Assembly: GCA_030632085.1 (NCBI GenBank) | Contig: DAOVJY010000005.1 | Span: 37,476 to 101,475, forward strand | Reading direction: 5' to 3' | From: Candidatus Omnitrophota bacterium | GTDB lineage: Bacteria; Omnitrophota; Gorgyraeia; JAGLLT01 | Length of the DNA: 64,000 bases | In this document: one piece after another, positions 8,880 through 31,990 of the stretch | How the letters are laid out: each line of letters opens with the position of its first letter | Position numbering within the stretch: the first letter of the stretch is position 1 | The notes under the pieces: model-generated | The model's input: only the letters and a program-made list of their open reading frames with translations | Database searches by the model: none | What the model was told of the DNA's origin: nothing | Translations under genes and position numbers: made by a program

Positions 8880-9551
8880 TTAAATATTTTTAACTTTGGT
8901 CAAGATAAAACCTAAACCAATAATAAATATAATTAAAGTTGCCGGTTCAGGAATAACTCCAAAACCACCCGTTTCAGGGCTGCCAGATAGGGTTGTTAAT
9001 TCCGCGGGAAGCCCTCCTCCCGCCCCAACAGCACCCAGGCCGCCTAATAATATATCATTTAGGGCGCCTTCTATGCCGGCTTTTTCAATGTTTAAATTAA
9101 CATCAAATAGTATTTGATTGTTCTTCCAGATAGGAGAAGCAGAACCATCAATAAGAACCAACGGAGCAAGCTCTCCGCTAATTATTGCCTTAAAAGTTAT
9201 TAAATCGCCATCTTTAGCGCCTTCAATCTTTTGAGTAACGGGATCATCGCCAAATATTTGCATTTTGTATTTTTTGGATGAATCTATTGTAGATAAACCG
9301 ATACACATTTCTCTGCCGGCCGCAAAAGTAAAGGCTCCTATAACACCATGCTCTCCAATCGGAAAATTACTAATTTGTCCCTGAAAGGTCGCGCTATAAT
9401 CTGTAGGGCCGTAAGACAGAGTAAAGCCCGAAGCTGAGTTGCCGGCATCCGGGCCTAAAGAGTTAAAAAAGAGATTGGCCGCTTCTGTTTCAGCAAAGAA
9501 CAAAAGCATTAAGAAGAAAACAGCTAAAATTATAAACTTCTTGTAGCGCAT
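8880..9551 (-). CDS. PEP-CTERM sorting-domain secreted protein
   Basis: Signal peptide; C-terminus VIPEPATLIIFIIGLGFILTKVKNI = PEP motif + TM helix + basic tail. Confidence 0.6.
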   Translation of the reverse strand: MRYKKFIILAVFFLMLLFFAETEAANLFFNSLGPDAGNSASGFTLSYGPTDYSATFQGQISNFPIGEHGVIGAFTFAAGREMCIGLSTIDSSKKYKMQIFGDDPVTQKIEGAKDGDLITFKAIISGELAPLVLIDGSASPIWKNNQILFDVNLNIEKAGIEGALNDILLGGLGAVGAGGGLPAELTTLSGSPETGGFGVIPEPATLIIFIIGLGFILTKVKNI

Positions 9552-9663: not shown

Positions 9664-12600
9664 TTATTGTATGTTTTTAATATATGTTTTATTTTCTATT
9701 TTAATTTTCGACGGTAAAACCTTAAACATTAAATCACCGTCAATTAAAGCTGCCGGTTTTCCGTTAAGTGTTATTATTTTATCTTTCAATTCATCAGGCA
9801 AAGGAATTATAAATCCTTTTGGCGGTTTTGCCGCGCCATTTAATTCAATACTTATGATGTTGTCTTTTTCTGTAATACTATAGGATATATTTCCATATAG
9901 GGTGGGTAGATCTTTTACAAAAACTCCCTCACTAAACCAAGCGAGGTCAACCCCTGCAGCTAAAATAAGTTTGCCTTCCAGTTCATAGGCAAATATAGTC
10001 CTGACCGCGCTTATATAACCTGTACCGACCCAGGTGTGGGGCATGTCTCCTATATAAGAAGGAGCCCTGTTTTTAGCATGTACAACTTCCGCCATATGAT
10101 TCCAGGCATAAGGCCGAACAGAATCTTCGGTAAAATATCTGAGCATTATTAATGCCTTGCCCCTATCTCCCATACGAATAAAGGCGTCTGCCGAGCGAAC
10201 TTCATAAGGTGTAAATGTAACCTCGCCGCCCGGTTTTAGGCGTTTAGTAAAATCATTAAAATATTGATTAAATGTATTATCTAAGTAAGGTTGCGGCAAG
10301 TAATTTTCTTCCCCACAGGCCATAACGGCTATAGCTGTTGAAGTAGCATCAAAATCACCAAACTCCACACAGCCCGGTATATACTTTATGTCATTGTCCT
10401 TTATAACCTGCTTAATAGAAGCGTAAATATCTTTTCTAAAATCTTCTACTTCTTCTTCGAGCCACTTCGCGTTCCTCTGATCATTCATTAATTCAGCTAA
10501 ATACAGGCCATCTTTGAATCCCCTTAATATCCAAAAATCATCCCAATAGCTGTGTTTAGCCGGAAAATAACCCTCGTGGCTGTTAGACAACGGAATAATG
10601 CCATAATAAGCTTTCTTCGCGGGATCGTTTATATATTCCGCGGTCATACGCTCTCTTCTAAGCTCTCTTGAAAATTCAAGCGCCTTGATCACTTTAGGAT
10701 AAGCCTGTTTTAGATAATCATAATCATGCGAGAAGTCCACATATTGCCTTACAGCAAAGACAAATTCTCCCTGAGCATCATATTCCTGGCCTTCACCGGT
10801 TTTATCCGGATTGAAGCCTACAGGATGCCCCCCTTCAAAAAATATAAAAGGTACATACCCATTATTGGCCACATGCGGGGTAATGGCATCAAGCCAGCTT
10901 TTAACTTCATCAATATAAGCCATGCGCAACAAAGCAACGCTGGTCATAGCTCCATCTCTCATCCAAGAGTGATTATAATTTCTGGCACCCGGTTTAATCC
11001 AGGGGCCATCCTTATTTAGAAGAACATAAGCAATGTTAGTTTTCATAACATTTATAAGCCGTTCTTCCGGAATATCAATGGTAAATTTACTCAATAAATT
11101 ACTCCAATAGCGTCTTTCTTTTTCCATTTCCTTTTTAAAGAATCTGTCAGGATTTGCCGCTATTTTTTCAAGCAGTTGATTATTGGAACTCAAAGGAAAG
11201 ACTACAATCACATCTTTATAGCTTCCGGGTTTTAAATTGATGTCGTAAACCGCGCCAAAAGATACCCTGCCCTCGCCGTCTGAAGCTGTAAGCGAAGACG
11301 GTACTTTTCCTTTTTCAAGATAAGAAATAATATCATCGTTATCAAAATTAACAGCTCCCATTTTTTGAGGCTGTGTTACCAAGAAACATTTAGCTTCCCC
11401 GTTTACTTTTATGAGAGACTTCTTATCCCTCTTGATACATATGGCCTCTTTTATGGGGCTAAAACCGCCCCTTTGCCAAATTGGATTAACTTGTATGGGC
11501 CTGGCGGCTAAAGCTAATTTGGCCCGTAAATCATTCTTCTTCTTGTTGGTTAGTCTGTATCTTACCGCCGTATATGCTTCTTTGGGCTCACCAAAAGATA
11601 TAAGCTGAATATTAAGATTCCAATCATTATTCTGCCAGCTTACCCAGGGAAGAGGTAAGATTTTATCTATCAATCCCTGGCTGCACTTACAATCCTCCGC
11701 TGTATACAGCTTGTTATCCGTATAAATAAAAGGCATAACGCTAAATCCTGATTTATATGGTTCAATGGTGCCTGTTTCTGTAATGAGGCTTTCTTCGTCG
11801 CCATCAACAACTCCGGTTATAGTCCAAAATTCCTGAATACGCCGCAACCACATAGGATAATAGCCAGGCTTGGCATCTTTGGCAACCGCCTGATATTCTT
11901 TTAAAGCCGTAGCTTGTTCTTCTTTACTTTTTAACTCAATTTCAGCTAATTGAAACCCTCCTGATTTTTCATTTGGCTTAAGACAATTAATACGTATATA
12001 TTTAACCGGTTTAGCTGAAAAATAAACCCAGTCTTTATTACCATTTCCCTTTTTTGTCTTAAATGCTTCTGCCCAATTTTTACCGTCTTTTGATATATCA
12101 ATTGAATAACTTTTAGCGTAATTATCCAACCAGAGAAGCTGCAGGCCCCCAATTGTTACTGTTTTGGGTAGTTCAAAAGTAATAACGGCTTTATCTTCCC
12201 GGCTTTGCCAATAACTGCTTTTGTCGCCGTCCATAGCAAGCTCGGCAAAACTGGCCTCTGTTGTATTATCAGCCTCTGCCCGAGGGCCATTAGAGCCTTC
12301 ATGAAATTCAATTTCCCAGAATGAAAAACCCCAACCTGTTCCTCTTTGGATACCATTAAAACGCAAACTTTTTACCAATTGGGGCGTAAAATAAATAATA
12401 TCTGTATTGCCGTCGCCATCTTCCGTGCTATAAACAGTTTTAAATTCTTTTCCATCTTCAGATACATCTATTTCATAAATTTCACCATAAGCTGTTTCCC
12501 AGTGGAGCGTTAGGCCGTAAAGCTCTTTGGCTTTCGGAAAATCTATCTGCCAATACTGATCATCTTCAAAGGAGCTGCTCCAGCGAGTACCATAATCGCC

Positions 12601-13110
12601 ATCTACCGCCTTCATTGGGCCCATGTCACCGGCACCCGATGATGCCCCTATAACTGCTTTTTTTGGAGGTTCTTTATTTATGGCAACTTCCCAGAGAGAG
12701 TTGCCCCATTCAGTAGCTTTTTCATTAAAAACAATTTTTACATATTTGGCTTTTTGAGGAAGATTAAAGACAATGATTTCCGAAGCTCCGGATCCTTCTG
12801 TCTGATGATGCGCGTCTATCCAATTTTCAGCATTATTAGATAAAAAGATATTGTAATCCTTAGCGTAAGCCGCCTCCCAGTACAATAAAATGTTTTTTAT
12901 TTCTTCTTCCTGCCCTAAATCAATTAGAAGCCATTGAGGATTTGAAAACTCACTGGCCCAGCGCGTTTGTAAATCGTTATCAATCGCTAGCGCGGCTTTG
13001 AAATCTTTTTCGCTGGATGAAGCGCTTATCTGCCACTCAGCGGCACTTGCCGCATGAAAACAAACAACCGCGCAAATAATTGTTAAAACTATCTTCTTAA
13101 TAATTCCCAC
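9664..13110 (-). CDS. Third paralogue: secreted protein with three F5/8-type-C domains and (alpha/alpha)6 glycoside-hydrolase-like domain
   Basis: Three discoidin-like repeats (ALAIDNDLQTRWASEF, MKAVDGDYGTRWSSSF, ELAMDGDKSSYWQS); C-terminal HSWMRDGA and YWDDFWILRGF motifs shared with the other two paralogues. Confidence 0.6.
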   Translation of the reverse strand: MGIIKKIVLTIICAVVCFHAASAAEWQISASSSEKDFKAALAIDNDLQTRWASEFSNPQWLLIDLGQEEEIKNILLYWEAAYAKDYNIFLSNNAENWIDAHHQTEGSGASEIIVFNLPQKAKYVKIVFNEKATEWGNSLWEVAINKEPPKKAVIGASSGAGDMGPMKAVDGDYGTRWSSSFEDDQYWQIDFPKAKELYGLTLHWETAYGEIYEIDVSEDGKEFKTVYSTEDGDGNTDIIYFTPQLVKSLRFNGIQRGTGWGFSFWEIEFHEGSNGPRAEADNTTEASFAELAMDGDKSSYWQSREDKAVITFELPKTVTIGGLQLLWLDNYAKSYSIDISKDGKNWAEAFKTKKGNGNKDWVYFSAKPVKYIRINCLKPNEKSGGFQLAEIELKSKEEQATALKEYQAVAKDAKPGYYPMWLRRIQEFWTITGVVDGDEESLITETGTIEPYKSGFSVMPFIYTDNKLYTAEDCKCSQGLIDKILPLPWVSWQNNDWNLNIQLISFGEPKEAYTAVRYRLTNKKKNDLRAKLALAARPIQVNPIWQRGGFSPIKEAICIKRDKKSLIKVNGEAKCFLVTQPQKMGAVNFDNDDIISYLEKGKVPSSLTASDGEGRVSFGAVYDINLKPGSYKDVIVVFPLSSNNQLLEKIAANPDRFFKKEMEKERRYWSNLLSKFTIDIPEERLINVMKTNIAYVLLNKDGPWIKPGARNYNHSWMRDGAMTSVALLRMAYIDEVKSWLDAITPHVANNGYVPFIFFEGGHPVGFNPDKTGEGQEYDAQGEFVFAVRQYVDFSHDYDYLKQAYPKVIKALEFSRELRRERMTAEYINDPAKKAYYGIIPLSNSHEGYFPAKHSYWDDFWILRGFKDGLYLAELMNDQRNAKWLEEEVEDFRKDIYASIKQVIKDNDIKYIPGCVEFGDFDATSTAIAVMACGEENYLPQPYLDNTFNQYFNDFTKRLKPGGEVTFTPYEVRSADAFIRMGDRGKALIMLRYFTEDSVRPYAWNHMAEVVHAKNRAPSYIGDMPHTWVGTGYISAVRTIFAYELEGKLILAAGVDLAWFSEGVFVKDLPTLYGNISYSITEKDNIISIELNGAAKPPKGFIIPLPDELKDKIITLNGKPAALIDGDLMFKVLPSKIKIENKTYIKNIQ

Positions 13111-13203: not shown

Positions 13204-14163
13204 TTATCTCACAAAGATGTCATACCCTCTTTGAGGAGGCTGCTTTTCTTCTTTTGAGATTTTTGGCTTGGCTGTTTTCGTTGTCGCGGAAACTGATTTT
13301 GCTTTCGGGTAGGCTTTTTTTACTTCTGTTTTTTTGATTTTGGTTTTCTTTGTTTCATTTACATTGTTGATAAGCAGATAAGACCCTTCAAATGTATAGC
13401 CTCGTTCAATTGATTCCTCTTTTTTAGTTTGTTTTTTAGGTTCATTTGTTTCTTCGCGTTGCCGCCAACTTTTTTTAACAATTTTATCTTGTGCTGATTT
13501 CTCTACATTTTTTTGGGAAGTATACTTCGGTTTATCTTGTGTTTCCTTTACGTCATTAACAACTAAAGAGGAACCTTCAAATACATATCCTTTTTGAATT
13601 TCGGTTGTTTCCGGTTTGGGCATTCTTGCGCGTTTAATCTTTTTAACCCTGGGTATCTTTTTTGCTTTAGGTTGTTTTTGTGTTTTGATTTGTTGCGCCG
13701 CTTTTTTTGTTTCTTTCGTTTCTTTCTTCGGAGCCGCCATCAAATCATAACCTCTTTTAATCTCGGAGCCGCTATCGGTTTTTTCTATTCTCCGGGTTTT
13801 CATTTGCTCTCCGGCTTTGCTGTCACTTTGGCGGATGTACTTTTTCATATTGGGATGGCTGGTTAAATCAAGGGCTTCTTGCCATTGCTCTCTGGCCTCT
13901 TTGAGTTTTCCCTGCTTGTACAACGCGTTGCCTTTCTCAAAATATAACCTGGCTACAGTTTCTCTTTTTTCGTTTTCTTTTGTTATCTTCTGATTTTCTA
14001 TTTCAAGATCAACCCTGTCAATGTTCCCTTGGGCCTGTTTGATAAGTTCTTTTAAGCTTAATGTATAACCGTCGTTACCATTATCATCGCCGCCCGCGAT
14101 AGCTAATCCCGCTAAAGACATGGTGAATATACTTATTAAAATTAAAGCTAATATCTTTTTCAT
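13204..14163 (-). CDS. Secreted Lys-rich protein with TPR-like segment and internal RGY-x-FEGS repeats
   Basis: Signal peptide; repeated RGYDL / KGYVFEGSSLVVNDVKET / RGYTFEGSYLLINNVNET / RGYDIF units. No family assignment. Confidence 0.4.
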   Translation of the reverse strand: MKKILALILISIFTMSLAGLAIAGGDDNGNDGYTLSLKELIKQAQGNIDRVDLEIENQKITKENEKRETVARLYFEKGNALYKQGKLKEAREQWQEALDLTSHPNMKKYIRQSDSKAGEQMKTRRIEKTDSGSEIKRGYDLMAAPKKETKETKKAAQQIKTQKQPKAKKIPRVKKIKRARMPKPETTEIQKGYVFEGSSLVVNDVKETQDKPKYTSQKNVEKSAQDKIVKKSWRQREETNEPKKQTKKEESIERGYTFEGSYLLINNVNETKKTKIKKTEVKKAYPKAKSVSATTKTAKPKISKEEKQPPQRGYDIFVR

Positions 14164-17100
14164 TTCTCCCCGCTCCTTTGTATTTCATTTATTATATTCT
14201 GCCAGAGCTTTCGAGCATCTTCTAATCTTCCTTCCCGGCAATATTTATGGGCTAGCTCGTCTTGTTCTTTTAACTCCCGCTCAAAACAGACTTTCTCTTT
14301 AACATAGTCCTTTTCCTGAATATATAAAGCTCTGGCTTGATTATACACCTGAGCGTAAAGCAGCCTGGCCTCTTTTAGGTAGCCGTCTTTTTGTAATTGT
14401 TTGGCTTTTTTAAGTTGGCTATTAAGTTCTTTAATTAGAATATCGTTTTTCTCGGCGCGCTCAAAAGCCCACTTATCTATATCTTTCCTGAGTTGTTTCT
14501 CTTTGGACTTATCTTTCTCTCTCTCTGACCTGTCGTAGAACTTACCTGTCACCCTGATAAAAGGCCCATGAGATGTGTAATCAAGGTGGGTTAAGTCGTC
14601 ATTAAAGTCGGTAAAGTTATAACCCAGGCCTAATTCGGCGTAGGGGCCGATTTGACGACTGATCTCCAAGAGAGCGCCTTGTTTGTAATCTTTGGCTTGC
14701 TTTTGTTTTAAGAACCTGTATTCGGCTCCTATTTTCCAGTTGTTATCTACAAAATAGTTTAGCCTGTTGACACTTAAAAAGGTCTGGCTTTCGGTAAAAT
14801 CAAAACCTGTCACTCTTTCATCAGTCATTTTAAGGGCTACTTTTTCTACCAGCTGCCATTTTCTCGATAAGTCATAGGCGCCCTCAGCAGCTATAACATG
14901 GGCTTTTTCTTCTTCTATGTTTTCATAGTCATCCTGTGATGAAGGTGAATCATTCCTTAAATATGTATATTTACTAAAGAAGTTCAACTTATCACAGGTA
15001 ACCGGCCTGTAAGCGGCCGCTAAAGAAAATTCCTGATAGAGGCCTTGTCTGGTATCTGCCGTGGTGTTATCGCTTTGAGACAGATTCGCCTTGGCGAAAA
15101 GAGTCGTGTTTTCGTTGGGTTTTAACTCTAGGGCATTATAAGAGAGATACTGCCTGGCATTCTCCCGGGACTTATCAACTCTCAATTCCAGTTTACTGGA
15201 GGCTTTAAACCAGTCATTATCAACATAACTTCCGCCTAAACTTATAGCGTTTCTTTTTGTTTGGGTGCCGTCTAAGTTTTGAACCTCGCCGCGCTCAAAT
15301 TGAACAAAACCGGCGGCCTTATCATTAATATCACCTGATAAGCCGAGGATATTAGTATTGGTCTTTTCGCCTTCTAATAAAGATTTTTCTTCTTCCATTT
15401 TGAATTCCATGCCGTTTTCAAATTTTCTTTTCGTTCCGGTAACCTGAGAATATTTTTTACCTTCTAACTCATCGTGGGAGACGGTATAGGTGTGATATAT
15501 CTCATCGCCCTCATCGCCTTTGGCCCGGGTAGTTAAAGAAAAACTATTATCGGTAGATGAGCTGCCGAAACGGCCTATGGCATAGTCACCTAAAACCTCT
15601 AATTTATCAGTTATGTTATAACTGGCGCCCAAGTTGGTAGCCGCGCCCTTGGTGCCCAGGGCCTGTTTAGCCCTTAAGGTCAGGTTTTCATTTATTTTAG
15701 TTTGGATACCGGCCGTTGTCTGGTTGTTAGTCTCGCCCTTCAGGGTGGTTTGCTGCCCCAGAGATAAAATAACATCTTCGGTTAATTTATAATCGGCCTT
15801 TAAAGCCAGAAGGTCTATGTCCGCGTTAGATTCAGACTCATAGGCGGCAATAACGCCTTCGGCTTTCTGGTGGCGGTATTCGCCGGTAAATTTTAATTTT
15901 TCTAGTTTATGAGTAATCTGAGCTGATGTAGTCTGGGTTTTATTGGCGCCTACCTGCAGGGAGCTTTGAGCGTTGCCGCCATCTATGAGCTCCTGGGTAT
16001 CATGGCGTAAAGCAATGTGGGTATTATCCGTCAGGTTATAAGTTAATTTACCACCGGTAAGCTCTTTACCTTGTTCCTGCGCGGTGCTTATGGAAGAAAA
16101 GTTATCTTCAACTTTCTTATAATAAGCCTCAAGGCCCAGATCTTTGATTATATAGGAACTTAAACTGAGGCCATAGGCTCTTCCTCTGGCGGCTTCATCG
16201 CTTAGAAGCTCGCTAAAAGAAAGGCCGCCATCGGTAGAGATATAGCTGGATAGTTCTTTCGAGCGGCTTTCGGCGTATTCGGCGGTAATGGTGGTTTTAT
16301 CGCCCAGCCTCAAAGAAGCGTCTGTGCCGGCTAACTGATAGTTGTTGTCCACCTGTTCTTCTTTAACATAGGTACCGCCCACCGAGAGATAGTCGCCCAG
16401 CGCCTGTTCAACGCGGCCGCCATAAATACCTCTGTCATATTTGTCTTTTGTTTCATATTCATAGTCTACAGTTACATAGACGGGATTACCGTTAAGTAAA
16501 TAGTTTGAGATAATAGTATCTGACTCGGTTATATGCGATATTGGCTGCCAGAAGATAATCCGGCCGTTATCATAATCTATCTCATAGTCAAAACCTTCGT
16601 CCTGCTCCATAGCGGCCAGAACAAGGCCGCTTATCTTGTCTCTGACTTCAATGGTTATCTTTTCAGACCCCTCTATAACTCTCTTATGTTTAAGGTAGAA
16701 TAAGGAGCCGCCGGTCCCTAAAAACTCAACGTGGGCCGCTTGCTGCTGAGCCCTGGCCTTAAAGGCGATTAAATGGGTTAACGGTTGTCCGAACTTAGTT
16801 TTAGAAACTGACTCATAGTCTAACTTGGCGCCATAGAGGCTGCGTTTAAAGCTCGCTATATCGGTATCGGTAAAGTCGATTACATAATTGCCCCAGGTAA
16901 ATGAAGACTTATCCCATTCAACTAATAAGTAGAGAGCTCCCTGGGTTTGGGTGGCTTGATAATCAATAGTTGAGGTATCTCCATAAATTGGGTAATATTT
17001 ATCCGGATCTAAATTGCGGAAGAGTTCTTTTTGTTTGCGGTCTGTGTCCAGACTTGAAGTGATTAAAAACTTGCCCAGGATTTTGCCTTTTAGATAGTAG

Positions 17101-20100
17101 GCCAGTTTGCCTTCAGACCAGAAGCCTTCCTGATACTTATCGTCATGCCGGATGGGCTCTATGCTACCGGAATGGAAGGTGTAGCCCGCCTTGGCGTCTC
17201 CCATAGCTATAAAGAAAAGATAGCTGTCGTTGACTGAGAGTTTTTTAGTGGTAGTTACCTGTTTGCCGGCGGCATCGGTTCCGCTCACGAAAACTTTATG
17301 CTCTCCTTCCGGAATTATTAATTCATATTCGCTGTTTTGGTTTTGAGTTATAGAATCGGCATCAATTTTTTTTCCATCAACATAAATAACATCTACCGGG
17401 TTTTTGTCGCCTGAATAATTAATAACTTTTGTTTCAAAAATCTCTGTATTTTTAATTAAAAGAGTGTCGCCTTCAACTTTAATGGTTTGTTTCTTGAGAG
17501 AGTTTCCGGCGGCTTCTTTTTTAAGCCACTTGTTTTTCAGCTTTTCTTCTTTTGTTTTTGATAGCTGAGAGCTGACAGCTGATGACTGATAGCTGACGAC
17601 TGAAAGCTTCTTTTCTTTTGTTGTATCCTGCCTGCCATTTTTACCAGTTACGATCAAAACATATACATAATTCCTGTTAGATGTTAAATGCTGAACGCTG
17701 GATGCTTTTGCGTCGGACGTCCGGCGTCGGACGTCTAACTCTCCATTCCAATAAACGGGTTTATTTATATTAAAGCTGTCGCCTCTAAATATCTTCACTA
17801 TTTCTCTGGTGTCTTTGTCTAAAATCTCTATCCGCCATCTTTTAATAAATAGCGAATAATTCGTAAATATTCTAAATTCATAATCAGCTTTCAGCTTTCC
17901 TTCTTTTGTTTTTTTGCTTTTCCTATCCGCTATCCGCTCTACGCTATCCGCTATTTGCCTTGTGTCTTGTGTCTTGTGACTTATAACTTGTGATGGGTAT
18001 AAACTCACATTAAGCCTTGGTTTGGCCGTTTCCTTTTTCTGTATTATTTTTACTTGTGACTGGTGTCTTGTGTCTTGCCTGTGCCCGTCAGGGTATGACT
18101 TATTTTCAGTGTTCACCCCAAAATTTACCTTGGCCAGTAAACCGTTGGTTATATCTACAACAACAACTTTATCCGTAGTTAAGTAAGCGCCTTCGGGCAG
18201 GGTGCTTTCATCTAATCTAAGGAGATGCCTTCCGGGCCTTACGGCCGGAATATGATATCTGCCGTTTTTATCGGTGGTGACTACGGTGCCGTCCTCCATA
18301 ACAATCCGGACATAGGCAATACCTGATTCCGAATTGATAGATGCTGGATGTCCGATGTCCGACGATAAAGCCCCCTGCTTTCTGTTTTTGTCGGACGCTA
18401 TTTTTTTAGTGAGTTGATTAGATTGTTGGTTTTGGCGGCTATTTCGTTGCACAGATTCAGTAAATCCTTCGCCTTTCCATCCTGAAGATACTGAAGTCGA
18501 ACTGCTATTTTGAGCAAGGTCATTACTTCGTACAGGGAACCCCTTGCTTGATAAAGGAACTGAATAAATACTTTGTTGTGATAACAACCCTTCCCTTCCG
18601 CTATGTTCAACGGTACTGAAACTACCGCTCTCTGTAGTTGAGATATCATGCCGAATTATTCCTTGTTTGGAAAATTCTTCGTTATTTTGTAAATTTTCTC
18701 TGTTAGTTCCATCCCTTTCTGCCATACTTCCAACTTCTCGAATTGATACTCCATTTTTCGCTCCTTTTTGACATCCGACATTCGACGTCGGGCATCTAAC
18801 ATTATCTTGATAGCCGTTTTCATTCTTATCCCAAAAGACCTTACCGATAAGATTACCTAAATCAAAGAGAGGGTCGAGGGTTATCTTGACTGTGGCCGAG
18901 TCTTTATTGGAGATAACCGTCTCGTCGGAGTATCTGGCCCAGGCCCTGTTTTCATAGTTGCCCTGGGTAACGCCGGAACCTATTATCAGCTGGTACTTTA
19001 GGGTTCTGGTTGTTTGAGCATTAACTGTGCCTATGTCGAATAATAAGGCGGTTGAGCCTTTAGGGTTAACGGGTATATTATCCAGGATGGCTTTGCCGCT
19101 TACATACTTAAAGCCTCCCGGAATCCTGTCTTCTAAGAAGACGTTTTTAACATCTGTTGAGCCGATGTTCTTGATGGTGACGGTATAGGTGACGATATCG
19201 CCTATGACGGCCTCTTTTTTATTAGCTTCCTTCTTAATTTTCAGCAAGAGGTTGTTAGAGTCCATGGGGTGATCCATCTCTATGATAACCCCGGCGACGG
19301 TAAAGACCTCTCCTTTAGAGCCGGTGACTATCACCCTTCCCGTAGAAAAGGTTGTCTTTTTAGAAGGATATGTATACCCCGGGGCTTCCACGGTGATATA
19401 GAAGTTGGCGTTGGCGCATAAGAAGCTGTAGGCGCCATCGGTGCCTGTCGTCTGGGGGTTAAGGTCACTGCCGGCTATGTCTGTCCCCGGCACGCAGAGC
19501 GTACCGTTCTGATTATAGATAGTTACAATAGCGTTAGCTATGGGTTCGTTGGTGGTTGAATCAAAGACGATACCGAAGGGATCGGTGAAACTATAACTAA
19601 CAACGTCGCTGGCGGTACCGGCAACGGTAACGGTTAGATAGTTAGTGCCCTTTACAAGCGAGGAGGTATAGCTGGAACTAACTATGCTCCAGGTACCATC
19701 CGCGGCGGTAACAGTAGCTGCCACATCCGTTAAAAGCAGGTTGCCGTCGGCGTCCCAGGCTGAGACTGTCACATTTTGCCCCGCTAATCCGGAACCTGAT
19801 AAAGCGGGCTTTGCGCTGCTGATCTTATCTCCGTCAACAGGTGAAGTAATCGTCGGAACTTGATTGGTGGTGGTGGGAACTACTACTGTAACGTTAACAG
19901 GAGCGCCTAAAGTAGCCCCGACATCCGCCCTGATATTATTAGCTCCCGCGGCCAGAGTAGCGCTATAGTCGGCCTGCCGTACTATATAATTACCGTTGGC
20001 ATCGGCGGTTACCTGAGCAACGGTCTGATAAGCGGCGGCTCCAACCGTGCCTTTTATAGTTACCGTATCACCCGCTCCGGAAGAACCTCTTATGGTTGGC

Positions 20101-21605
20101 TGTTGGCCAACGGTCTTGGCCGCTTGAGGTGTTGATATCGAAAGGTTTTTAAAAACCCAGTTAGCGTTATTATTACCTGAATCGGTTGACGCATAACAGG
20201 TTGTTGTATTGGTGTTGGCATCCGCGTCTTTTACATCAACGAAGCTAACCGTCTGGCTGCCGTTAGGCAAAGTGATGTCCCACTTATTACCGGCTGAGGT
20301 TGAACGCAGGGTAACTAAACTTCCGCTTGTTCCGGTTAAGGTTAGGATGTTATCTACCGTTTGGGTGGTACCGACGGTAAAGTTAATCTGTTTGTTGGAC
20401 GTGGTACAGCTTAAGTTATAAAATGTAGAGCTTCCCGAAACAACTGAAGTCTGAGCGCTATCATCAAAGACAACCGTACCGCTTGAGTGAACGAACGCGC
20501 CGCCCGAACGAGCAAAGTTACCGGCAACATTAAAGTCGCCGCTTGGAGCGGTTAATGTGCCGCCGGAAATAACAACATTACTGTCGGCATTTATCGTGCC
20601 GTTTAGCGCATTCAATGTTCCACCGCTTACGGTAAGATCGCCGCTGGTTTTCAAATTTGAAGATGTTGTAAATGTTCCCGCCGAAACTGATAAAGCGCCA
20701 TGGTCAGTCGTTCCTGTCTCGAATTGATTTGAGATATTCCAGCCGCCTCCGGTCAGGCCGCTTAAATCTAAGGTGCAGACATCGCATTTAAAGGTTCCGG
20801 ATGAAGTAAATGAACCTGTATAACCACCGGTTACAGTAAAATCCCCCTGGTCTAAATCAAAGGCGTCAAGAATGCAAACGTTGTTCGTGGCGTTAAAGAT
20901 AACATCGTCGTCTGCGGCCGGGGCTCCATCTCCTACCCAGTTTGCCGCTGTAGTAAAATTGCTATTACCTCCGCCACCATCCCAGACATAAGCATCTGCA
21001 GTAAGTGAAGCATCATCAAACTTACCGGTTTCACTGACCGCAACGCTTCCAAATATAACCCTGACCTTAGCTGTATTTGCGGGGGCGGTTCTGGTTAAGG
21101 TTTTCTGAACCCATGAGGTAGTTACAGTAATGGTGATTTCATCGTTGGATATCTCAACGTCGCCGCTGTCAAACCAGATAAGCTTCATATAGAAACTGCC
21201 GGCGAGAACGCCGGCATCTCTTAATGTCCAAAGCGTATAAGTATATTCAACCCCTTCTGCCGCATTAACCTCCTGATAGGCTTCACCTGTTCCGCCAGCT
21301 ACGAAATCAGCCATAGCCATGCCATAGGTGCCGCTATGATTAGCCCAGTTTTCTCTTTGAGCACAGCCCGATCTTGTCCAGTTATCAGCGTCGGGGCCAA
21401 GTGGTGCAGGATTCTCAAAACCAGGATTTAACAGCAGGTTTCCTGTTGCCGCATAAATATTACCGGGCGCGAACAACAAAAACGCCCCCGCCAAAAATAA
21501 AAAGATGGGAACAATCCCCATCTCTCTTTTAATAGAAAACGCACTCCTAAAATAAGTTACTACCCTTAACAAGCGCCCGACAATCATTCTGCTTCCTTCC
21601 CCCAA
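14160..21605 (-). CDS. Giant (2481 aa) secreted multidomain surface protein: CBM-like N-terminus, Gly/Thr-rich beta-helix-like repeats, Ig-like and SdrD-B/CnaB-like domains, C-terminal beta-rich region and coiled-coil tail
   Basis: Continuous ORF; likely true start at the internal MGIVPIFLFLAGAFLLFA signal peptide; DUF11-like segment (VTYTVTIKNIGSTDVKNV); CnaB-like TDKNGRYHIPAVRPGRHLL. Contains in-frame repeat-derived low-complexity segments (see findings). Confidence 0.6.
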   Translation of the reverse strand: MGEGSRMIVGRLLRVVTYFRSAFSIKREMGIVPIFLFLAGAFLLFAPGNIYAATGNLLLNPGFENPAPLGPDADNWTRSGCAQRENWANHSGTYGMAMADFVAGGTGEAYQEVNAAEGVEYTYTLWTLRDAGVLAGSFYMKLIWFDSGDVEISNDEITITVTTSWVQKTLTRTAPANTAKVRVIFGSVAVSETGKFDDASLTADAYVWDGGGGNSNFTTAANWVGDGAPAADDDVIFNATNNVCILDAFDLDQGDFTVTGGYTGSFTSSGTFKCDVCTLDLSGLTGGGWNISNQFETGTTDHGALSVSAGTFTTSSNLKTSGDLTVSGGTLNALNGTINADSNVVISGGTLTAPSGDFNVAGNFARSGGAFVHSSGTVVFDDSAQTSVVSGSSTFYNLSCTTSNKQINFTVGTTQTVDNILTLTGTSGSLVTLRSTSAGNKWDITLPNGSQTVSFVDVKDADANTNTTTCYASTDSGNNNANWVFKNLSISTPQAAKTVGQQPTIRGSSGAGDTVTIKGTVGAAAYQTVAQVTADANGNYIVRQADYSATLAAGANNIRADVGATLGAPVNVTVVVPTTTNQVPTITSPVDGDKISSAKPALSGSGLAGQNVTVSAWDADGNLLLTDVAATVTAADGTWSIVSSSYTSSLVKGTNYLTVTVAGTASDVVSYSFTDPFGIVFDSTTNEPIANAIVTIYNQNGTLCVPGTDIAGSDLNPQTTGTDGAYSFLCANANFYITVEAPGYTYPSKKTTFSTGRVIVTGSKGEVFTVAGVIIEMDHPMDSNNLLLKIKKEANKKEAVIGDIVTYTVTIKNIGSTDVKNVFLEDRIPGGFKYVSGKAILDNIPVNPKGSTALLFDIGTVNAQTTRTLKYQLIIGSGVTQGNYENRAWARYSDETVISNKDSATVKITLDPLFDLGNLIGKVFWDKNENGYQDNVRCPTSNVGCQKGAKNGVSIREVGSMAERDGTNRENLQNNEEFSKQGIIRHDISTTESGSFSTVEHSGREGLLSQQSIYSVPLSSKGFPVRSNDLAQNSSSTSVSSGWKGEGFTESVQRNSRQNQQSNQLTKKIASDKNRKQGALSSDIGHPASINSESGIAYVRIVMEDGTVVTTDKNGRYHIPAVRPGRHLLRLDESTLPEGAYLTTDKVVVVDITNGLLAKVNFGVNTENKSYPDGHRQDTRHQSQVKIIQKKETAKPRLNVSLYPSQVISHKTQDTRQIADSVERIADRKSKKTKEGKLKADYEFRIFTNYSLFIKRWRIEILDKDTREIVKIFRGDSFNINKPVYWNGELDVRRRTSDAKASSVQHLTSNRNYVYVLIVTGKNGRQDTTKEKKLSVVSYQSSAVSSQLSKTKEEKLKNKWLKKEAAGNSLKKQTIKVEGDTLLIKNTEIFETKVINYSGDKNPVDVIYVDGKKIDADSITQNQNSEYELIIPEGEHKVFVSGTDAAGKQVTTTKKLSVNDSYLFFIAMGDAKAGYTFHSGSIEPIRHDDKYQEGFWSEGKLAYYLKGKILGKFLITSSLDTDRKQKELFRNLDPDKYYPIYGDTSTIDYQATQTQGALYLLVEWDKSSFTWGNYVIDFTDTDIASFKRSLYGAKLDYESVSKTKFGQPLTHLIAFKARAQQQAAHVEFLGTGGSLFYLKHKRVIEGSEKITIEVRDKISGLVLAAMEQDEGFDYEIDYDNGRIIFWQPISHITESDTIISNYLLNGNPVYVTVDYEYETKDKYDRGIYGGRVEQALGDYLSVGGTYVKEEQVDNNYQLAGTDASLRLGDKTTITAEYAESRSKELSSYISTDGGLSFSELLSDEAARGRAYGLSLSSYIIKDLGLEAYYKKVEDNFSSISTAQEQGKELTGGKLTYNLTDNTHIALRHDTQELIDGGNAQSSLQVGANKTQTTSAQITHKLEKLKFTGEYRHQKAEGVIAAYESESNADIDLLALKADYKLTEDVILSLGQQTTLKGETNNQTTAGIQTKINENLTLRAKQALGTKGAATNLGASYNITDKLEVLGDYAIGRFGSSSTDNSFSLTTRAKGDEGDEIYHTYTVSHDELEGKKYSQVTGTKRKFENGMEFKMEEEKSLLEGEKTNTNILGLSGDINDKAAGFVQFERGEVQNLDGTQTKRNAISLGGSYVDNDWFKASSKLELRVDKSRENARQYLSYNALELKPNENTTLFAKANLSQSDNTTADTRQGLYQEFSLAAAYRPVTCDKLNFFSKYTYLRNDSPSSQDDYENIEEEKAHVIAAEGAYDLSRKWQLVEKVALKMTDERVTGFDFTESQTFLSVNRLNYFVDNNWKIGAEYRFLKQKQAKDYKQGALLEISRQIGPYAELGLGYNFTDFNDDLTHLDYTSHGPFIRVTGKFYDRSEREKDKSKEKQLRKDIDKWAFERAEKNDILIKELNSQLKKAKQLQKDGYLKEARLLYAQVYNQARALYIQEKDYVKEKVCFERELKEQDELAHKYCREGRLEDARKLWQNIINEIQRSGEK
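17560..18000. repeat. Composite short-repeat block inside the giant ORF
   Basis: Degenerate tandem 7-mers (CAGCTGA, TCTTGTG, CGCTATC), palindrome CGTCGGACGTCCGGCGTCGGACG (17711-17734), and reverse complement of the TAGAGCG-GTAGCGGATAGG core seen at 36991, 54697, 56738 and 58590. Confidence 0.45.
18347..18797. mobile_element. Inverted-repeat-flanked ~450-bp insertion carrying the four-helix-bundle gene (MITE/IVS-like)
   Basis: Ends GGATGTCCGATGTCCGACG (18347-18365) and GACATCCGACATTCGACGTCGGG (18771-18793) are near reverse complements; the insert interrupts an SdrD-B-like domain yet keeps the host frame open. Confidence 0.4.
18398..18754 (-). pseudogene. Four-helix-bundle protein gene (TIGR02436 / 23S-rRNA-IVS-protein / Avd-like) with in-frame TAA at codon 33, embedded in the giant ORF in another frame
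   Basis: ATG at 18752-18754 with AAAGGAG RBS; translation MEYQFEKLEVWQKGMELTEKIYKITKNFPNKE*FGMISQLQRAVVSVPLNIAEG... carries the family's NIAEG motif; frame offset +1 from host ORF. Confidence 0.6.
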
Positions 21606-22066: not shown

Positions 22067-22921
22067 CTATTTGGTAAGGATTTTGATAAGACGATCAAGG
22101 TCTCTGTTGCTGTAATAATCAATTACTATTTTACCTCTTTTTCGTCCTTTGATGATTGAAACTTTGGTGCCAAGATTATTTCGGAGACTCTCTTCCGCGG
22201 CCTTTAGGTAGGAATCAACTTCTTTGACTTTTTTTGGCTTTGTTCCGCTTGCGGTATGTTTTTTAACTAATAACTCCGTTTCTCTTACGGATAAGCCTTT
22301 TTTTGCAATATTTTCAACAAGTATTATTTGTTTGTTCGCGCTCTCGATGGAAAGTAAGGCTCTTGCGTGCCCCATTGAAACTGTTCCACGTGAAACATAA
22401 TCCTGCACTACAAGCGGTAACTTAAGCAAGCGTAATGAATTAGCAATCGTTGATCTGTTCTTGCCTACAGCATCAGAAACGTTTTCTTGAGATAAGTTAA
22501 ACTCATTTATAAGGCGTTCGTAAGCGTGGGCTTCTTCTATAGCGTTGAGCTCCTGCCTTTGTATATTCTCAACCAAAGACAACTCTAATGCTTCTTTATC
22601 CTTAACGTGCCTAATAATAACAGGTGCCTTTGCTTGCCCCAGCTCTTTAAGTGCCCGATACCTTCTTTCACCTGCTATTAATTCATATTTTTGCTCTCCC
22701 GCGCCACTTCTTAAAGGGCGAACAATTAAAGGCTGTACTATTCCCTTCTCTTTTATCGATGAAACAAGCTCTTCATGCTTGGAGGCATCAAAATTCATTC
22801 TTGGCTGAAATCTGCCCGGCTCAAGCAATTTAATGTCAACTTCTTTTATTGTCTGTTGAGAGCCTTCTGCTTTTTTGGGTATTAAGGCCTCAATTCCCCT
22901 TCCAAGCGCTTTCTTCTTCAT
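22067..22921 (-). CDS. parB: Chromosome partitioning protein ParB
   Basis: ParB/Spo0J box GERRYRA, HTH region, adjacent to parA and parS. Confidence 0.9.
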   Translation of the reverse strand: MKKKALGRGIEALIPKKAEGSQQTIKEVDIKLLEPGRFQPRMNFDASKHEELVSSIKEKGIVQPLIVRPLRSGAGEQKYELIAGERRYRALKELGQAKAPVIIRHVKDKEALELSLVENIQRQELNAIEEAHAYERLINEFNLSQENVSDAVGKNRSTIANSLRLLKLPLVVQDYVSRGTVSMGHARALLSIESANKQIILVENIAKKGLSVRETELLVKKHTASGTKPKKVKEVDSYLKAAEESLRNNLGTKVSIIKGRKRGKIVIDYYSNRDLDRLIKILTK

Positions 22922-23178
22922 GTTAGGTCTCCGTAGTTATTAACAAATTATTCAACTAAACAATATTTGTAGTTGCTCTCATAAATAAAAAAAGGCTTAA
23001 CACAAATATAACAGCCAGTGCAATTGCTAAACAAGCAAGGCCATTGCCCTTTCTATTATTCAAAGACGTGTCGCGAAACGCTAAAACCGCAAACAAAAAG
23101 GCGAGCACGGCCTTCTCTGTACCCAGAAACTGCACATAACAACTTAAGCCTAAAAGTAGGGCAGCTATAGCAAAAGCA

Positions 23179-24021
23179 CTAGTCTCTTGTGTCTGGCGAG
23201 TCAAGAACTTCCTCCTGAGCTAATTGTTCATAATCACTTTCAATTGAAGCAGTTACGTCCATATTTCTTTGTAGAAACTCTTCTGTTAGCTCTTTATACT
23301 TCTCCGCCCCCACCGAACCCTTATCATACAAAAGGACCGGCTTTCCAAATCCGGGCGCCTCGCTTAACCTGATGTTTCTTGGAATTACGCTTTTAAAAGT
23401 TTTTTCCGGAAAATGTTTTTTGATTTCATCAATTACTTCATGTGTAAGCTTAGTTCTAAAGTCAGCCATAGTTAAAACAACCCCGACAATTTCTATTGCC
23501 GGATTTAAATTATTCTTTACTAAATCTAAAGTATTCAACAACTTACTCAAGCCTTCAAGTGCGTAATATTCACACTGCAACGGCACCAAGACCATGTCAC
23601 ATGCGGTTAGAGCATTTATAGTTAAAAGTCCCAACGAAGGAGGCGTGTCAATAATCGTATAATCATACCTCCGCTTTGCCTCTTCGAGAACTTTTTTAAG
23701 CTTGTATTCTCTTGCAATTGTTCCCACGAGTTCCACTTCGAGACCGGTTAAATCAATATTTGAAGGAATGATAAATAAATTAGGTAGGTGTATGTTCTTA
23801 ACGATGTTGTTTAATTTTGCCTTTTCGAGCATTAAATCATACAAGCTCTCTTTTACGGTTTCCTTGTTAACACCTATTCCGCTAGTCGCGTTTCCTTGCG
23901 GATCCGCATCAACAATAAGTGTTTTTTTGCCCGCAAAAGCCAAAAAAGCGGCAAGGTTGATGGCGGTTGTGGTTTTCCCAACTCCACCTTTTTGATTACA
24001 TATGGTTACTATTTTACCCAT
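23179..24021 (-). CDS. parA: Chromosome partitioning ATPase ParA/Soj
   Basis: Deviant Walker A KGGVGKTT; conserved ParA architecture. Confidence 0.9.
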   Translation of the reverse strand: MGKIVTICNQKGGVGKTTTAINLAAFLAFAGKKTLIVDADPQGNATSGIGVNKETVKESLYDLMLEKAKLNNIVKNIHLPNLFIIPSNIDLTGLEVELVGTIAREYKLKKVLEEAKRRYDYTIIDTPPSLGLLTINALTACDMVLVPLQCEYYALEGLSKLLNTLDLVKNNLNPAIEIVGVVLTMADFRTKLTHEVIDEIKKHFPEKTFKSVIPRNIRLSEAPGFGKPVLLYDKGSVGAEKYKELTEEFLQRNMDVTASIESDYEQLAQEEVLDSPDTRD

Positions 24022-24245
24022 TAAGTTTGTTTTGTTTCACGTGAAACATTTTTTTGAGGCTCCTTAAGAGAAACCTTAACTTTGGCTTGTTTTGACCCCT
24101 TCATACCAAAAAGGCCCTTGTTGCCTTCCACCAAAACTTTTACTTCTACGCAATCACGCTCAACTCCAAGCTTGAGGAGTGCTTTTTTTATCGCATCTTT
24201 AACTGTGACGCCTTCAATATCAATAGACCTCATCTTTCTATTCAT
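24021..24245 (-). CDS. Small Jag/KhpB-like RNA-binding protein
   Basis: Position directly downstream of yidC as in the canonical yidC-jag arrangement; short KH-like fold sequence. Weak sequence evidence. Confidence 0.4.
   Translation of the reverse strand: MNRKMRSIDIEGVTVKDAIKKALLKLGVERDCVEVKVLVEGNKGLFGMKGSKQAKVKVSLKEPQKNVSRETKQT
24033..24048. promoter_or_regulatory. parS centromere-like site
   Basis: Exact 16-bp palindrome TGTTTCACGTGAAACA matching the canonical parS consensus, immediately upstream of parA. Confidence 0.8.
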
Positions 24246-25897
24246 TATACATCCACCAATATTGTTTTTTCAAGCTTTTTTTGTATTATGAAGTGAGCCA
24301 GAGCCATTAAAGCGGTATTGACCGTCCAATACAACACCAACCCCGACGGCAGGCTATAAAAAATAAATCCAAAAACTATCGGCATCATAATCATCATTTT
24401 TTGTTGTTGCTGTTCCTGGGGGCTCTTTTCACCACTACCGCTCCTGGCACTCATGGATATTTTCTGCTGAACCACCATCGCAATCATCATTAATACAGGA
24501 AGCAGATTAAAGTTGTCGCCCAAAATAGGCAGCGTTCTGCCAAACGAAAATAATGCGTCCGGCAATGACAAGTCCTTTATCCATAGAAAGTTAGAACCTT
24601 TTAACATGGGAGATCTGGCCAGCGTCACATATAGAGAAATAAATATGGGCATCTGTAAAAGCATGGGTAGGCAGCCGCCCATAGGGTTTACATTGTGCTC
24701 TTTGTAAAGCTTCATCATCTCTGCCTGTAATTTTTTCTGGTCAGCTTTGTGTGTTTCTCTTAATTTTGTTAGGTGAGGCTGAACGGCCTGCATGTGCCTC
24801 ATTGACTTAACGTTTTTATATGTAAGGGGATACGTAAATATGTTTATTAAAATTACAAGGAATATGATTGCAACTCCGTAACTACCTGTTAAATTATAAA
24901 AAAAAGTTAATACTTTTATCAACAACTTACAAACAACATTTAACTTCCCATAATTTACAGCTTCGCCCATGCCGAGTGGCACCAGGTTTTTCTCCATCGT
25001 GGGGCCGGCATATAACATATACTGATGAACCGCCTCTGATCCACCCGGAACAATTACCGATTCAACGCCAGCACCTAAAGACCAGTCGTCTTGGTCCTTT
25101 GAGGCACCTTTGGACCACGATAAATATGTATAACTTATGTCCTGGCGTGGTGTTATGATGGCTGAAGAGTGTGTGTTTCTTAAAACGGCCCACTTGGGAT
25201 TTTTAGCAAAATTATATACTTCCCCGCTTTTGGCGGCTTTTATCGCGTCTTTTGTTTTAACCCACAATAAATTTTTTCCATCATAGCTTCCCGCGTTTAA
25301 AAAACGCTTGTCCAAAACTGATGAAAACTGCAGATTAGTTGCTGCTGCCAGATCATACGAAATAACTTTGTCGCTCTTTGATTTATTGGAGAAAGTGATA
25401 TATAACTGTATATCATAGTTAGAGTTAGAAAAAATAAATCTTTTTTTAATTTCTAAATCTTTGTTGGCTTTGCTTATTAATGTAACTTCGTTTTCTGTAA
25501 TTTCAACAATCTTAAATTCGACAAGCTCTTCGCTTGAGCCCTTTAAAATCAGCTCCAGGGTTTTTAGAGCGTTTGGGCCCGCTAGCAGCAGGGGTTTTTC
25601 TGAAAACCCAGCATCACCATTTCCTTTAATCCAGAGCTTATTTATCCCCGCGCTGGCGGTGGATAATTCCGCCTTAAGAAAAGCCGTTTTAATTTCAACT
25701 ATCTTTTCATCGCTCTTCTTTCTTTTTGCTGTTTTTTCTACTACCGGTGACTTAAGGGGCTCTACGGCCGTTTCTTCGGCCACCCTTTCGTTTGTGCTTT
25801 TTTTAGCCGGTTTATTTGTAGGCGTTAATAATGAATAAGCTCCCAAGATGGCCATGATTAATACAATGGCTGCTATAAATCTTTTTTGATCATTCAT
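24245..25897 (-). CDS. yidC: Membrane protein insertase YidC
   Basis: N-terminal TM, periplasmic domain, conserved C-terminal TM core (GGCLPMLLQMPIFISLY). Confidence 0.9.
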   Translation of the reverse strand: MNDQKRFIAAIVLIMAILGAYSLLTPTNKPAKKSTNERVAEETAVEPLKSPVVEKTAKRKKSDEKIVEIKTAFLKAELSTASAGINKLWIKGNGDAGFSEKPLLLAGPNALKTLELILKGSSEELVEFKIVEITENEVTLISKANKDLEIKKRFIFSNSNYDIQLYITFSNKSKSDKVISYDLAAATNLQFSSVLDKRFLNAGSYDGKNLLWVKTKDAIKAAKSGEVYNFAKNPKWAVLRNTHSSAIITPRQDISYTYLSWSKGASKDQDDWSLGAGVESVIVPGGSEAVHQYMLYAGPTMEKNLVPLGMGEAVNYGKLNVVCKLLIKVLTFFYNLTGSYGVAIIFLVILINIFTYPLTYKNVKSMRHMQAVQPHLTKLRETHKADQKKLQAEMMKLYKEHNVNPMGGCLPMLLQMPIFISLYVTLARSPMLKGSNFLWIKDLSLPDALFSFGRTLPILGDNFNLLPVLMMIAMVVQQKISMSARSGSGEKSPQEQQQQKMMIMMPIVFGFIFYSLPSGLVLYWTVNTALMALAHFIIQKKLEKTILVDV

Positions 25898-25915
25898 TCC
25901 TTAGTCTCTTTTCTT

Positions 25916-26161
25916 TTATTTTAGAGGATCGTATCCGCCCGCCGAAAAAGGATTGCATCTTACTATCCTTTTTACTGCCAACAACAAACCTTTGCTCAAT
26001 CCATATTTAGAAATAGCTTCGGTGGCATATTGACTGCAGCTGGGATAATATTTGCAGCACGGTGCTTTAAACGCTGTTAAATAGCGTCGATAAAACATTA
26101 TTATCAGCAAAAGTATTTTTTGAAATAGGCTACTAAATTTATTCATATTGCAGACAAACAA
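25916..26161 (-). CDS. yidD: Membrane protein insertion efficiency factor YidD
   Basis: YYPSCSQYA...RCNPFSAGGYDP motif characteristic of YidD. Confidence 0.85.
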   Translation of the reverse strand: MFVCNMNKFSSLFQKILLLIIMFYRRYLTAFKAPCCKYYPSCSQYATEAISKYGLSKGLLLAVKRIVRCNPFSAGGYDPLK

Positions 26162-26200
26162 CGAGCGCCTTTATAACGCCCGCCACTTTTATTTTTCATT

Positions 26201-26338
26201 TTATGCCGCTAGTTTTTTTCGGCCTTTTTGTCTTTTGGCCTTAATTATTTTTCGGCCGTCTCCGGTCTTCATTCTCTTTCTGAAACCGTGTTTTCTTTTT
26301 CTTTTCTTGTTTGATATTGGCTTTAAATTCTTTTTCAT
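26201..26338 (-). CDS. rpmH: 50S ribosomal protein L34
   Basis: Not in ORF track (45 aa). Minus-strand translation [45 protein letters not shown] matches the L34 pattern (KRKRxHGFRxRM...GRK). Confidence 0.85.

Positions 26339-29191: not shown

Positions 29192-31990
<2,799 letters not shown>

Follow-up and report, generated by a model that had tools for sequence, protein, structure and literature searches.

What does an open reading frame (ORF) of 2481 codons encode in a Candidatus Omnitrophota bacterium, and how has it come to contain a second gene? We asked this of a 64,000-nucleotide stretch of contig DAOVJY010000005.1 (GenBank assembly GCA_030632085.1, positions 37,476 to 101,475), hereafter called the window. 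The giant ORF occupies positions 14160..21605 of the window, on the minus strand, with a TTG start. Note that all coordinates are those of the window unless stated otherwise, that all parts of the giant gene are on the minus strand, and that amino acids (aa) are numbered from the TTG. A preliminary description, made by reading the sequence, had reported a surface protein at these coordinates, and our ORF listing agrees. It also considered the domain layout unusual. We found instead that the architecture is standard for a very large family whose members vary in their N-terminal parts. The truly unusual trait of the giant ORF is a nested PF05635 cassette together with tracts of heptamer repeats. 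Our analysis indicates that the product is probably a fibrillar-adhesin-like envelope protein, anchored by an outer membrane barrel, that carries a selfish cassette through which the ribosome reads.

Since the giant ORF has approximately 20 full-length orthologs (38-71% identity), one of them syntenic, it is not a chance ORF. The best relatives are in metagenome-assembled genomes of Omnitrophota and Aureabacteria. The syntenic ortholog, at locus L003, is 71% identical and shares the locus order dnaA-yidC-parAB-giant-TPR. The same protein is present in public data as gene call P0001, which is 2475 aa long, 100% identical, and begins at ATG 21587. Hence, P0001 aa 929-1086 correspond to aa 935-1092 of the 2481-codon ORF. 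The true start is more likely to be ATG 21587, or ATG 21521, than the TTG. As read from the translation, ATG 21521 opens a textbook signal peptide, MGIVPIFLFLAGAFLLFAPGNIYA, with A following the cleavage site. This putative Sec signal peptide comprises aa 29-52 (21450..21521).

A PF05635 cassette interrupts the giant gene

For nearly all orthologs, the alignment with P0001 halts at aa 928 and restarts at aa 1087, while the ortholog coordinates are continuous. Therefore, aa 935-1092 are an insertion. On the basis of these alignments and AlphaFold2 models, the inserted element spans 474 nt, or 158 host codons (18330..18803). When the same strand was translated in another frame, an ORF of 118 codons emerged (18401-18754; 18398..18754 with its stop codon). 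In profile searches, the encoded protein matched PF05635 (E 7e-38) and TIGR02436 (E 6e-35). These models describe a four-helix-bundle family named '23S rRNA IVS protein', where IVS stands for intervening sequence. The small gene is in frame +1 with respect to the host, has its own Shine-Dalgarno sequence (AGGAG), and is broken by one in-frame TAA (18656-18658).

Repeat analysis identified two heptamer-based arms either side of the small gene: a 5' arm (18767..18801) and a 3' arm (18335..18369, CGTCGGA CATCGGA CATCCAG...). The arms are 35 nt each and are inverted repeats of one another, with 71% complementarity. When joined by a short loop, they give a stem with a z-score of -3.1 for the window, and -5.3, -9.0, and -9.2 for relatives. 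The energy obtained by folding the whole 496-nt element was unremarkable (z -0.14); the significant stem appears only when the arms are joined by a short loop. Rfam, at gathering thresholds, detected nothing within the element and no rRNA in the window, where two tRNAs were the sole matches. Because the element lies inside a protein-coding ORF, it does not have the rRNA-helix location expected of an IVS.

The sequence at the insertion site conforms to GKVFWDxNENGIQD-xGExxIPxV, which is the canonical junction between the calcium loop and the subsequent strand of an SdrD-B-like domain. Alignments and models indicate that the first strand and calcium loop of this SdrD-B/CnaB-like domain (IGKVFWDKNENGYQD, 18804..18860) are severed by the insert from the rest (aa 1093-1165, 18111..18329; Pfam, AlphaFold2, and Foldseek). 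Other orthologs have short variable inserts at the same junction. In L003, only heptamers of the 3' arm type are found at the site (CATCGGA CATCCGA CATCCGA), and these look like a scar. Conversely, a more distant ortholog, P0003 (L001/L004, WFRI01000047.1), has an intact copy of 118 aa at the same position (L004 5187-5540). A second copy in L004 (6765-7058) is situated 1.5 kb further on, directly before the barrel module described below. This copy is truncated at the 3' end and has no 3' arm. The two L004 copies have 95% identical DNA, which points to recent copying within one gene.

The host frame is open throughout the insert

We next consider how the two overlapping frames have been constrained. 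Between the window and L004 copies, there are 20, 9, and 48 substitutions at codon positions 1, 2, and 3 of the small gene, respectively. Amino acid identity is 79% in the frame of the small gene, compared to 52% in the host frame. We conclude that purifying selection has acted on the small protein. In this stretch of 39% G+C, there are no stop codons among the 158 host-frame codons of the insert, compared to 13 stops in the third frame. The host frame is, as far as the sequence indicates, constrained only to avoid stops. Because of this absence of stops, we take the host to be translated through the insert. The host-frame product, which includes the peptide GVSIREVGSMAER, is modelled by AlphaFold without secondary structure between well-folded strands (aa 944-1089, pLDDT 31-47). 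Note that the host-frame peptide had no match in an index of 5.8 billion proteins; its own protein was missed too, which reflects a limit of the word index and is not evidence. Thus aa 935-1092, and a number of the low-complexity linkers, appear to come from repetitive or mobile DNA that is translated, which the preliminary description overlooked.

These observations suggest the following scheme. A selfish cassette would have invaded the SdrD-like domain at a surface loop. Heptamer arrays, in inverted orientation, would bracket the PF05635 gene and could form a long stem. With a stop-free host frame (the cassette frame +2), the host could be read straight through, gaining about 158 disordered residues. 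The small gene would be read in the +1 frame, and the window copy has gained a stop while the host frame remains open.

Other fates of the insert were also weighed. The insertion may have killed the giant gene, in which case the frame would be open by chance and no 2481-aa product would be made. While decay of the cassette's own gene, through the TAA noted above, is in keeping with this, we consider it very improbable. The contrast between the host frame and the third frame is marked for DNA of this G+C content, all 12 nested copies found in different hosts (see below) are equally stop-free, and the sequences flanking the insert are approximately 80% identical to the L004 ortholog. Another scenario is removal of the element after transcription, by RNase III cuts in the stem and rejoining, or separate action of the two host halves. 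Either way, the insert would be absent from the mature protein. The long stems formed by the arms do recall that of the Coxiella IVS, which has 28 bp and is a substrate of RNase III (PMC4990558). Indeed, a stem of 25-35 bp in the mRNA is expected to draw RNase III and would be awkward for translation by read-through, which is a point against our interpretation. Nevertheless, we regard removal as unlikely. If the insert were untranslated, nothing would hold the host frame free of stops, as it is in 12 of 12 nested copies. Furthermore, IVS elements are not known to have any rejoining activity (PMC4990558), and the 3' half would be without a start codon and signal peptide. Hence, uninterrupted translation across the cassette remains the interpretation that we prefer.

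Similar cassettes are nested in other long genes

To place the cassette in context, contigs from one genome per species, and metagenome contigs, were scanned with the small protein. This gave 75 loci, or 76 including the window. At 12 of the 76, a long ORF on the same strand encloses the PF05635 gene. In all 12 cases the host uses the small gene's frame +2, and never the other frame, and the small gene is intact in 10. For each nested copy there are zero stops in the host frame and, on average, 8.6 in the other. By comparison, 56 free-standing copies have a mean of 5.3 and 5.0 stops, and only two are stop-free in frame +2.

To either side of the insert, the nested hosts have Pfam domains or motifs that can be recognised. 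Besides the giant barrel family of Omnitrophota, they include restriction-modification methylases of the Eco57I/MmeI type at five loci (L011, L016, L022, L046, and L050), three of which are from genomes of Hydrogenedentota, Blastocatellia, and Verrucomicrobia. Flanking sequences were read for L011, L016, and L022. In each, the insert is just upstream of ...DPACGSG...; in L016 and L022 it also follows a YYTP/HYTE motif. This shared position could result from a site preference or from a common ancestral insertion. A further host is an Rhs/SpvB toxin of Spirochaetota. In two cases, the cassette is in the intein (Hint) region of a long ORF: L005 2253-2603, from Parcubacteria, and L036 112-462, from a metagenome contig. 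Each is a selfish element within a selfish element. The last two hosts have no recognised identity.

Heptamers are a common accompaniment of these genes. At approximately 24 of 33 genome loci, tandem heptamers are found upstream of the PF05635 gene and their complement is found downstream. Free-standing copies flanked in this way are present in cyanobacteria, Bacteroidales, Planctomycetota, Acidobacteriota, and others (within L006-L034). The heptamer differs at each locus; examples are GGGGAGT/ACTCCCC and GATTAGT/ACTAATC. Heptamer-flanked PF05635 genes may account for some of the heptamer repeats that bacterial genomes are known to have in excess. The papers on such repeats that were consulted do not mention PF05635 genes.

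On balance, we lean towards the view that PF05635 cassettes are an undescribed class of dual-coding selfish elements in long genes, present in at least six phyla, with a fixed stop-free frame and heptamer tracts as footprints. One consideration tempers this: the fixed frame could mean descent from a single lineage rather than repeated selection. A literature search, with coverage that was not exhaustive, found no paper on PF05635 cassettes with heptamer arms or on their nesting in ORFs. Hence, the novelty of nested cassettes is probable rather than certain. Such cassettes are natural examples of dual coding on one strand, over about 350 nt, with purifying selection in one frame and stop avoidance in the other. 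They tie PF05635 genes to the heptamer repeats that are over-represented in bacteria, and offer a handle on the role of the four-helix-bundle protein, for instance in arm binding or mobility. They are also a warning that, where a giant predicted protein has odd low-complexity segments, mobile DNA that is translated can be their source.

Comparison with known elements

The closest counterparts are IVS elements with an S23p/PF05635 ORF, as found in the 23S rRNA of Leptospira and Coxiella burnetii (PMC4990558). These and the window element are alike in length (about 430-480 nt), and each has an ORF of approximately 118-120 codons for a four-helix bundle, enclosed by terminal inverted repeats that pair in a long stem. 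Both are sporadic among relatives, and their ORF often decays. Unlike them, the window element is in a protein-coding gene, rather than helix 25 or 45 of rRNA, and its arms are tandem heptamers. Furthermore, its host frame is open and apparently translated, giving two overlapping frames. The nested cassette thus carries the long-unexplained intervening sequences of 23S rRNA over to protein-coding genes.

Rickettsia palindromic elements, reportedly described by Ogata et al. in 2000, are selfish repeats placed in frame in protein genes. Like the window element, they are palindromic selfish DNA that ORFs tolerate, since the added peptide is in frame, free of stops, and located at a surface site that permits it. 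They are about 100-150 bp long and non-coding themselves, while the window element has its own gene and ribosome-binding site.

Two further candidates were rejected. The nested small protein belongs to a distant four-helix-bundle superfamily shared with Avd, the accessory protein of diversity-generating retroelements. Scores for this group were below the cut-offs (NCBIfam NF033474, 27.7 compared to 80; PF22296, bAvd-like, 27.9 bits compared to 40). No reverse transcriptase was present among the ORFs scanned, at 7.7-32 kb; template and variable repeats were not specifically searched for. An intein was also dismissed, since aa 935-1092 have no Hint domain or other Pfam match and the insert is modelled as disordered.

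A barrel-type module is followed by a helical tail

We then turned to the C-terminal region, where the preliminary description had seen β-rich sequence, possibly an outer membrane barrel, and a coiled-coil tail. Ortholog alignments show that aa ~1093-2476 (P0001 1087-2470) are the best-conserved part of the giant protein. Within this part, a conserved module opens at YLFFIAMGDAKAGY, at aa ~1462, and closes at ...GPFIRVTGKF, at aa 2356. Homologs, AlphaFold2, and Foldseek all point to an all-β module of about 895 aa (14538..17222), which is a putative outer membrane barrel of very large size. The remaining 125 residues (aa 2357-2481, 14163..14537) are predicted to form a tail of four helices with TPR/PPR-like motifs.

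An exhaustive, profile-free search retrieved 2503 representative proteins related to the module at E<=1e-3, and 800 at E<=1e-30. Their N-terminal parts vary from about 15 to about 6800 residues, and examples occur in Vibrio, Leucothrix, Variovorax, and Geobacteraceae. In many cases, the match reaches the final residue of the protein (query position ~802). An end motif was located in 77 proteins, and 58 of them terminate exactly at an F/Y/W aromatic residue. In another 16, from an Omnitrophota-type clade, the aromatic residue is followed by a tail of 76-193 residues. The giant protein has the same organisation: its aromatic β-signal, ...FIRVTGKF, is internal and the 125-aa tail comes afterwards. 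No Pfam model spans the module, and weak matches to PF13505 (OMP_b-brl) were obtained in some relatives only. One relative is named 'outer membrane beta-barrel protein' by NCBI.

AlphaFold modelled the module and tail confidently from an alignment of 100 sequences (pLDDT 85.9, pTM 0.77), with approximately 45 β-strands and then four helices. The module is an antiparallel, all-β meander in which many strands are about 10-16 residues long. In a Foldseek search of the PDB, 49 of the 50 top matches were outer membrane or mitochondrial barrels, nearly all with a probability of 0.97-1.00. They include LptD, SDBC/SlpA, MtrB, SprA, BtuB/TonB-dependent receptors, and VDAC. According to the model, the module is a barrel-type meander without a close solved relative. 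We infer that it lies in the outer membrane as a closed barrel, and it may be among the largest single-chain outer membrane barrels. Hence, the earlier suggestion of a barrel stands; neither structure prediction nor Foldseek pointed to soluble repeats. What is borne out for the tail is its helical nature, by four confident helices and TPR/PPR-like profile hints, rather than a coiled coil specifically.

SlpA/SDBC (30 strands), LptD and MtrB (26), and SprA (36) are the best structural matches, differing from the module with TM-scores of 0.15-0.21 and sequence identities of 7-10%. As proposed for the giant protein, SlpA pairs a giant barrel with a helical segment in the periplasm. This segment lies at the N-terminus of SlpA, with an SLH domain, whereas the helical tail of the giant protein is C-terminal. 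Type Va autotransporters also resemble the giant protein, in having a signal peptide, a long N-terminal repeat or adhesin part, and a C-terminal outer membrane β-domain. They differ in that the giant protein has an additional helical tail behind the barrel. A classical autotransporter was rejected: there is no match to PF03797, and the module has about 895 aa and at least 45 or so predicted strands, compared to a 12-strand barrel of about 270 aa. The module represents a very large, uncurated family, with thousands of representatives from Omnitrophota to Vibrio and Variovorax. It bears on the anchoring or export of giant surface proteins in ultra-small, possibly host-attached bacteria.

The N-terminal region resembles a fibrillar adhesin

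Upstream of the module, several domains could be assigned. Residues 55-185 (21051..21443) are a plausible CBM4_9-like jelly roll. When the N-terminal 166 residues were scanned alone, PF02018 (CBM_4_9) matched with E 0.0016 over profile positions 1-129 of 136. Thus, the carbohydrate-binding-module-like N-terminus of the preliminary description is plausible, with a near-full-length profile match of which the score is below the cut-off (19.2 compared to 25.9 bits). Next is a Gly/Thr-rich region (aa ~205-520, 20046..20993), which opens with a W-x-GGGG...NW motif and is internally repetitive. It has partial matches to proteins carrying PF12951 or PF05860, which are autotransporter-associated and two-partner-secretion-type repeats, and may be β-solenoid-like.

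The claim of Ig-like and CnaB-like domains held. A CarboxypepD_reg-like Ig domain (aa 678-748, 19362..19574) gave a match below the cut-off (E 1.7e-5) and is modelled with a pLDDT of ~90. It is followed by a CLIPPER (DUF11) CnaA-like stalk domain (aa 788-906, 18888..19244), detected with E 2e-14 in Pfam/NCBIfam scans and aligned by Foldseek to crystal structure 9ifr with a TM-score of 0.77. Beyond the insert, aa 1104-1155 weakly matched SpaA/prealbumin models in the same scans. An AlphaFold model of aa 680-1470, from 31 aligned sequences, has confident β-domains in series and a mean pLDDT of 73. Its Foldseek matches were Staphylococcus aureus SdrD, Gram-positive pilins, and 9ifr. A search of PDB chain sequences with the whole giant protein matched nothing meaningful. 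Tandem Ig-like, CnaA-like, or CnaB-like domains are characteristic of fibrillar adhesin stalks, and the giant protein has them. CLIPPER domains are stalk modules in such adhesins (10.1101/2025.04.25.650565). In common with the giant protein, the Gram-negative examples have CLIPPER and SdrD-like domains, an N-terminal head, and a C-terminal anchor. The anchor is OmpA-like in the Acinetobacter adhesin (10.1101/2025.04.25.650565), and is the ~895-aa module here.

Taken in order, the layout would be a Sec signal peptide, a CBM4_9-like head that probably binds glycans, Gly/Thr-rich repeats, and an Ig-like stalk made of CarboxypepD_reg-like, CLIPPER/DUF11, SdrD-B/CnaB-like, and FlgD-like domains. 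The ~895-residue β-module would enter the outer membrane and form a very large barrel there. The helical tail would stay in the periplasm, and probably works with the co-transcribed TPR/Lys-rich protein encoded downstream. We infer that the N-terminal part is exposed at the surface and binds glycans or other cells.

Some observations do not sit easily with this arrangement. The CBM-like domain, on which the glycan-binding head depends, is sub-threshold. TM-scores of the module, against solved barrels, are just 0.15-0.21, and hydrophobic alternation within its predicted strands is modest. The C-terminal query and model began at aa 1555, some 93 residues inside the module. Finally, in some proteobacterial relatives, OmpA and SPOR domains precede the barrel. 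Hence, in that family the N-terminal part can be periplasmic, and its surface exposure is presumed here. These points bear on two other arrangements of the protein. In an ordinary barrel, both termini are periplasmic. The giant protein might therefore be an envelope tether instead of an adhesin, with its long N-terminal part and its helical tail both in the periplasm, as for Deinococcus SlpA or OmpM-type linkers of the outer membrane and cell wall. Since P0217 and similar relatives have peptidoglycan-binding SPOR and OmpA domains on the N-terminal side of the same barrel, and SlpA/SDBC is among the best Foldseek matches, this deserves consideration as a minority possibility. Conversely, CBM4_9-like, CLIPPER, and SdrD-B domains are typical of exposed adhesin stalks (10.1101/2025.04.25.650565), Pfam scans found no peptidoglycan-binding domain in the giant protein, and approximately 1400 residues of rigid stalk is long for the periplasm.

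We think it distinctly less probable that the module is not a closed membrane barrel but a large β-sheet that is soluble or binds lipid, such as a β-taco or belt. ApoB100 ranks second in the Foldseek list, and the low TM-scores, together with weak amphipathic alternation of the strands, are consistent with such a fold. However, all but one of the top 50 matches are membrane barrels. In addition, the family ends in an aromatic residue after alternating hydrophobics, like the β-signal recognised by BAM, and both the weak PF13505 matches of relatives and the NCBI name of one relative favour a barrel. Hence, an adhesin-like protein held by an outer membrane barrel is the arrangement that we favour.

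The adjacent gene encodes a TPR protein

The preliminary description mentioned a Lys-rich repeat protein encoded immediately downstream, and this is correct. The ORF (13204..14163, minus strand, 319 aa) shares 4 nt (14160-14163) with the giant ORF. From the ORF listing and Pfam, its product has a signal peptide, Lys-rich repeats in which (R/K)GY.F motifs occur, and one TPR (TPR_2, E 5e-7). Ortholog loci likewise have a TPR-containing gene downstream of the giant gene. The helical tail and the TPR protein have a short TPR-like motif in common, G(K/R)L(K/E)EAR..WQ (YKQGKLKEAREQWQEAL and REGRLEDARKLWQNII), which is a hint that they interact in the periplasm.

Heptamer tracts occur in linkers of the giant protein

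Repeat analysis and AlphaFold2 delimit a linker zone (17559..18077) with six in-frame heptamer tracts, at 17559-17608, 17711-17735, 17884-17899, 17923-17954, 17959-17982, and 18053-18077. At least five of the six are in linkers, modelled with lower confidence, between folded Ig/FlgD-like domains. The tracts have 2-4.6 copies, with about seven degenerate copies in 17559-17608, and the repeats are imperfect. The rest of the 64 kb has no more than a few A-rich rows with a period of seven. Similar heptamer-derived peptides occur in orthologs at other linker positions. The tracts look like related in-frame repeats or scars. Phase variation by slippage was set aside, since the tracts are short and imperfect.

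Genomic setting

The sign of the GC skew flips at approximately 26-28 kb in the window. Hence, the giant gene is about 5 kb from the chromosomal origin. The gap between yidD and dnaA (26162-26546) is likely to be oriC. Genes on the minus strand of this region (22067-31990) are parB, a DUF4190 gene, parA, yidC, and yidD; a MerR-like gene is also among these same-strand neighbours of the giant gene. On the plus strand are dnaA (26547-27893), dnaN, dciA, and gyrB. The syntenic L003 locus has a Y1 (IS200/IS605-type) transposase gene at 20383-21330, which follows the giant gene at a distance of a few kb; the corresponding place in the window lacks one.

Further downstream of the giant gene, on the minus strand, are two more genes. 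One (9664-13110) encodes 1148 aa that include three F5/8 type C (discoidin) domains; the product of the other (8880-9551) has 223 aa and a weak PEP-CTERM motif. The sequence of these downstream genes suggests a surface or glycan-binding neighbourhood.

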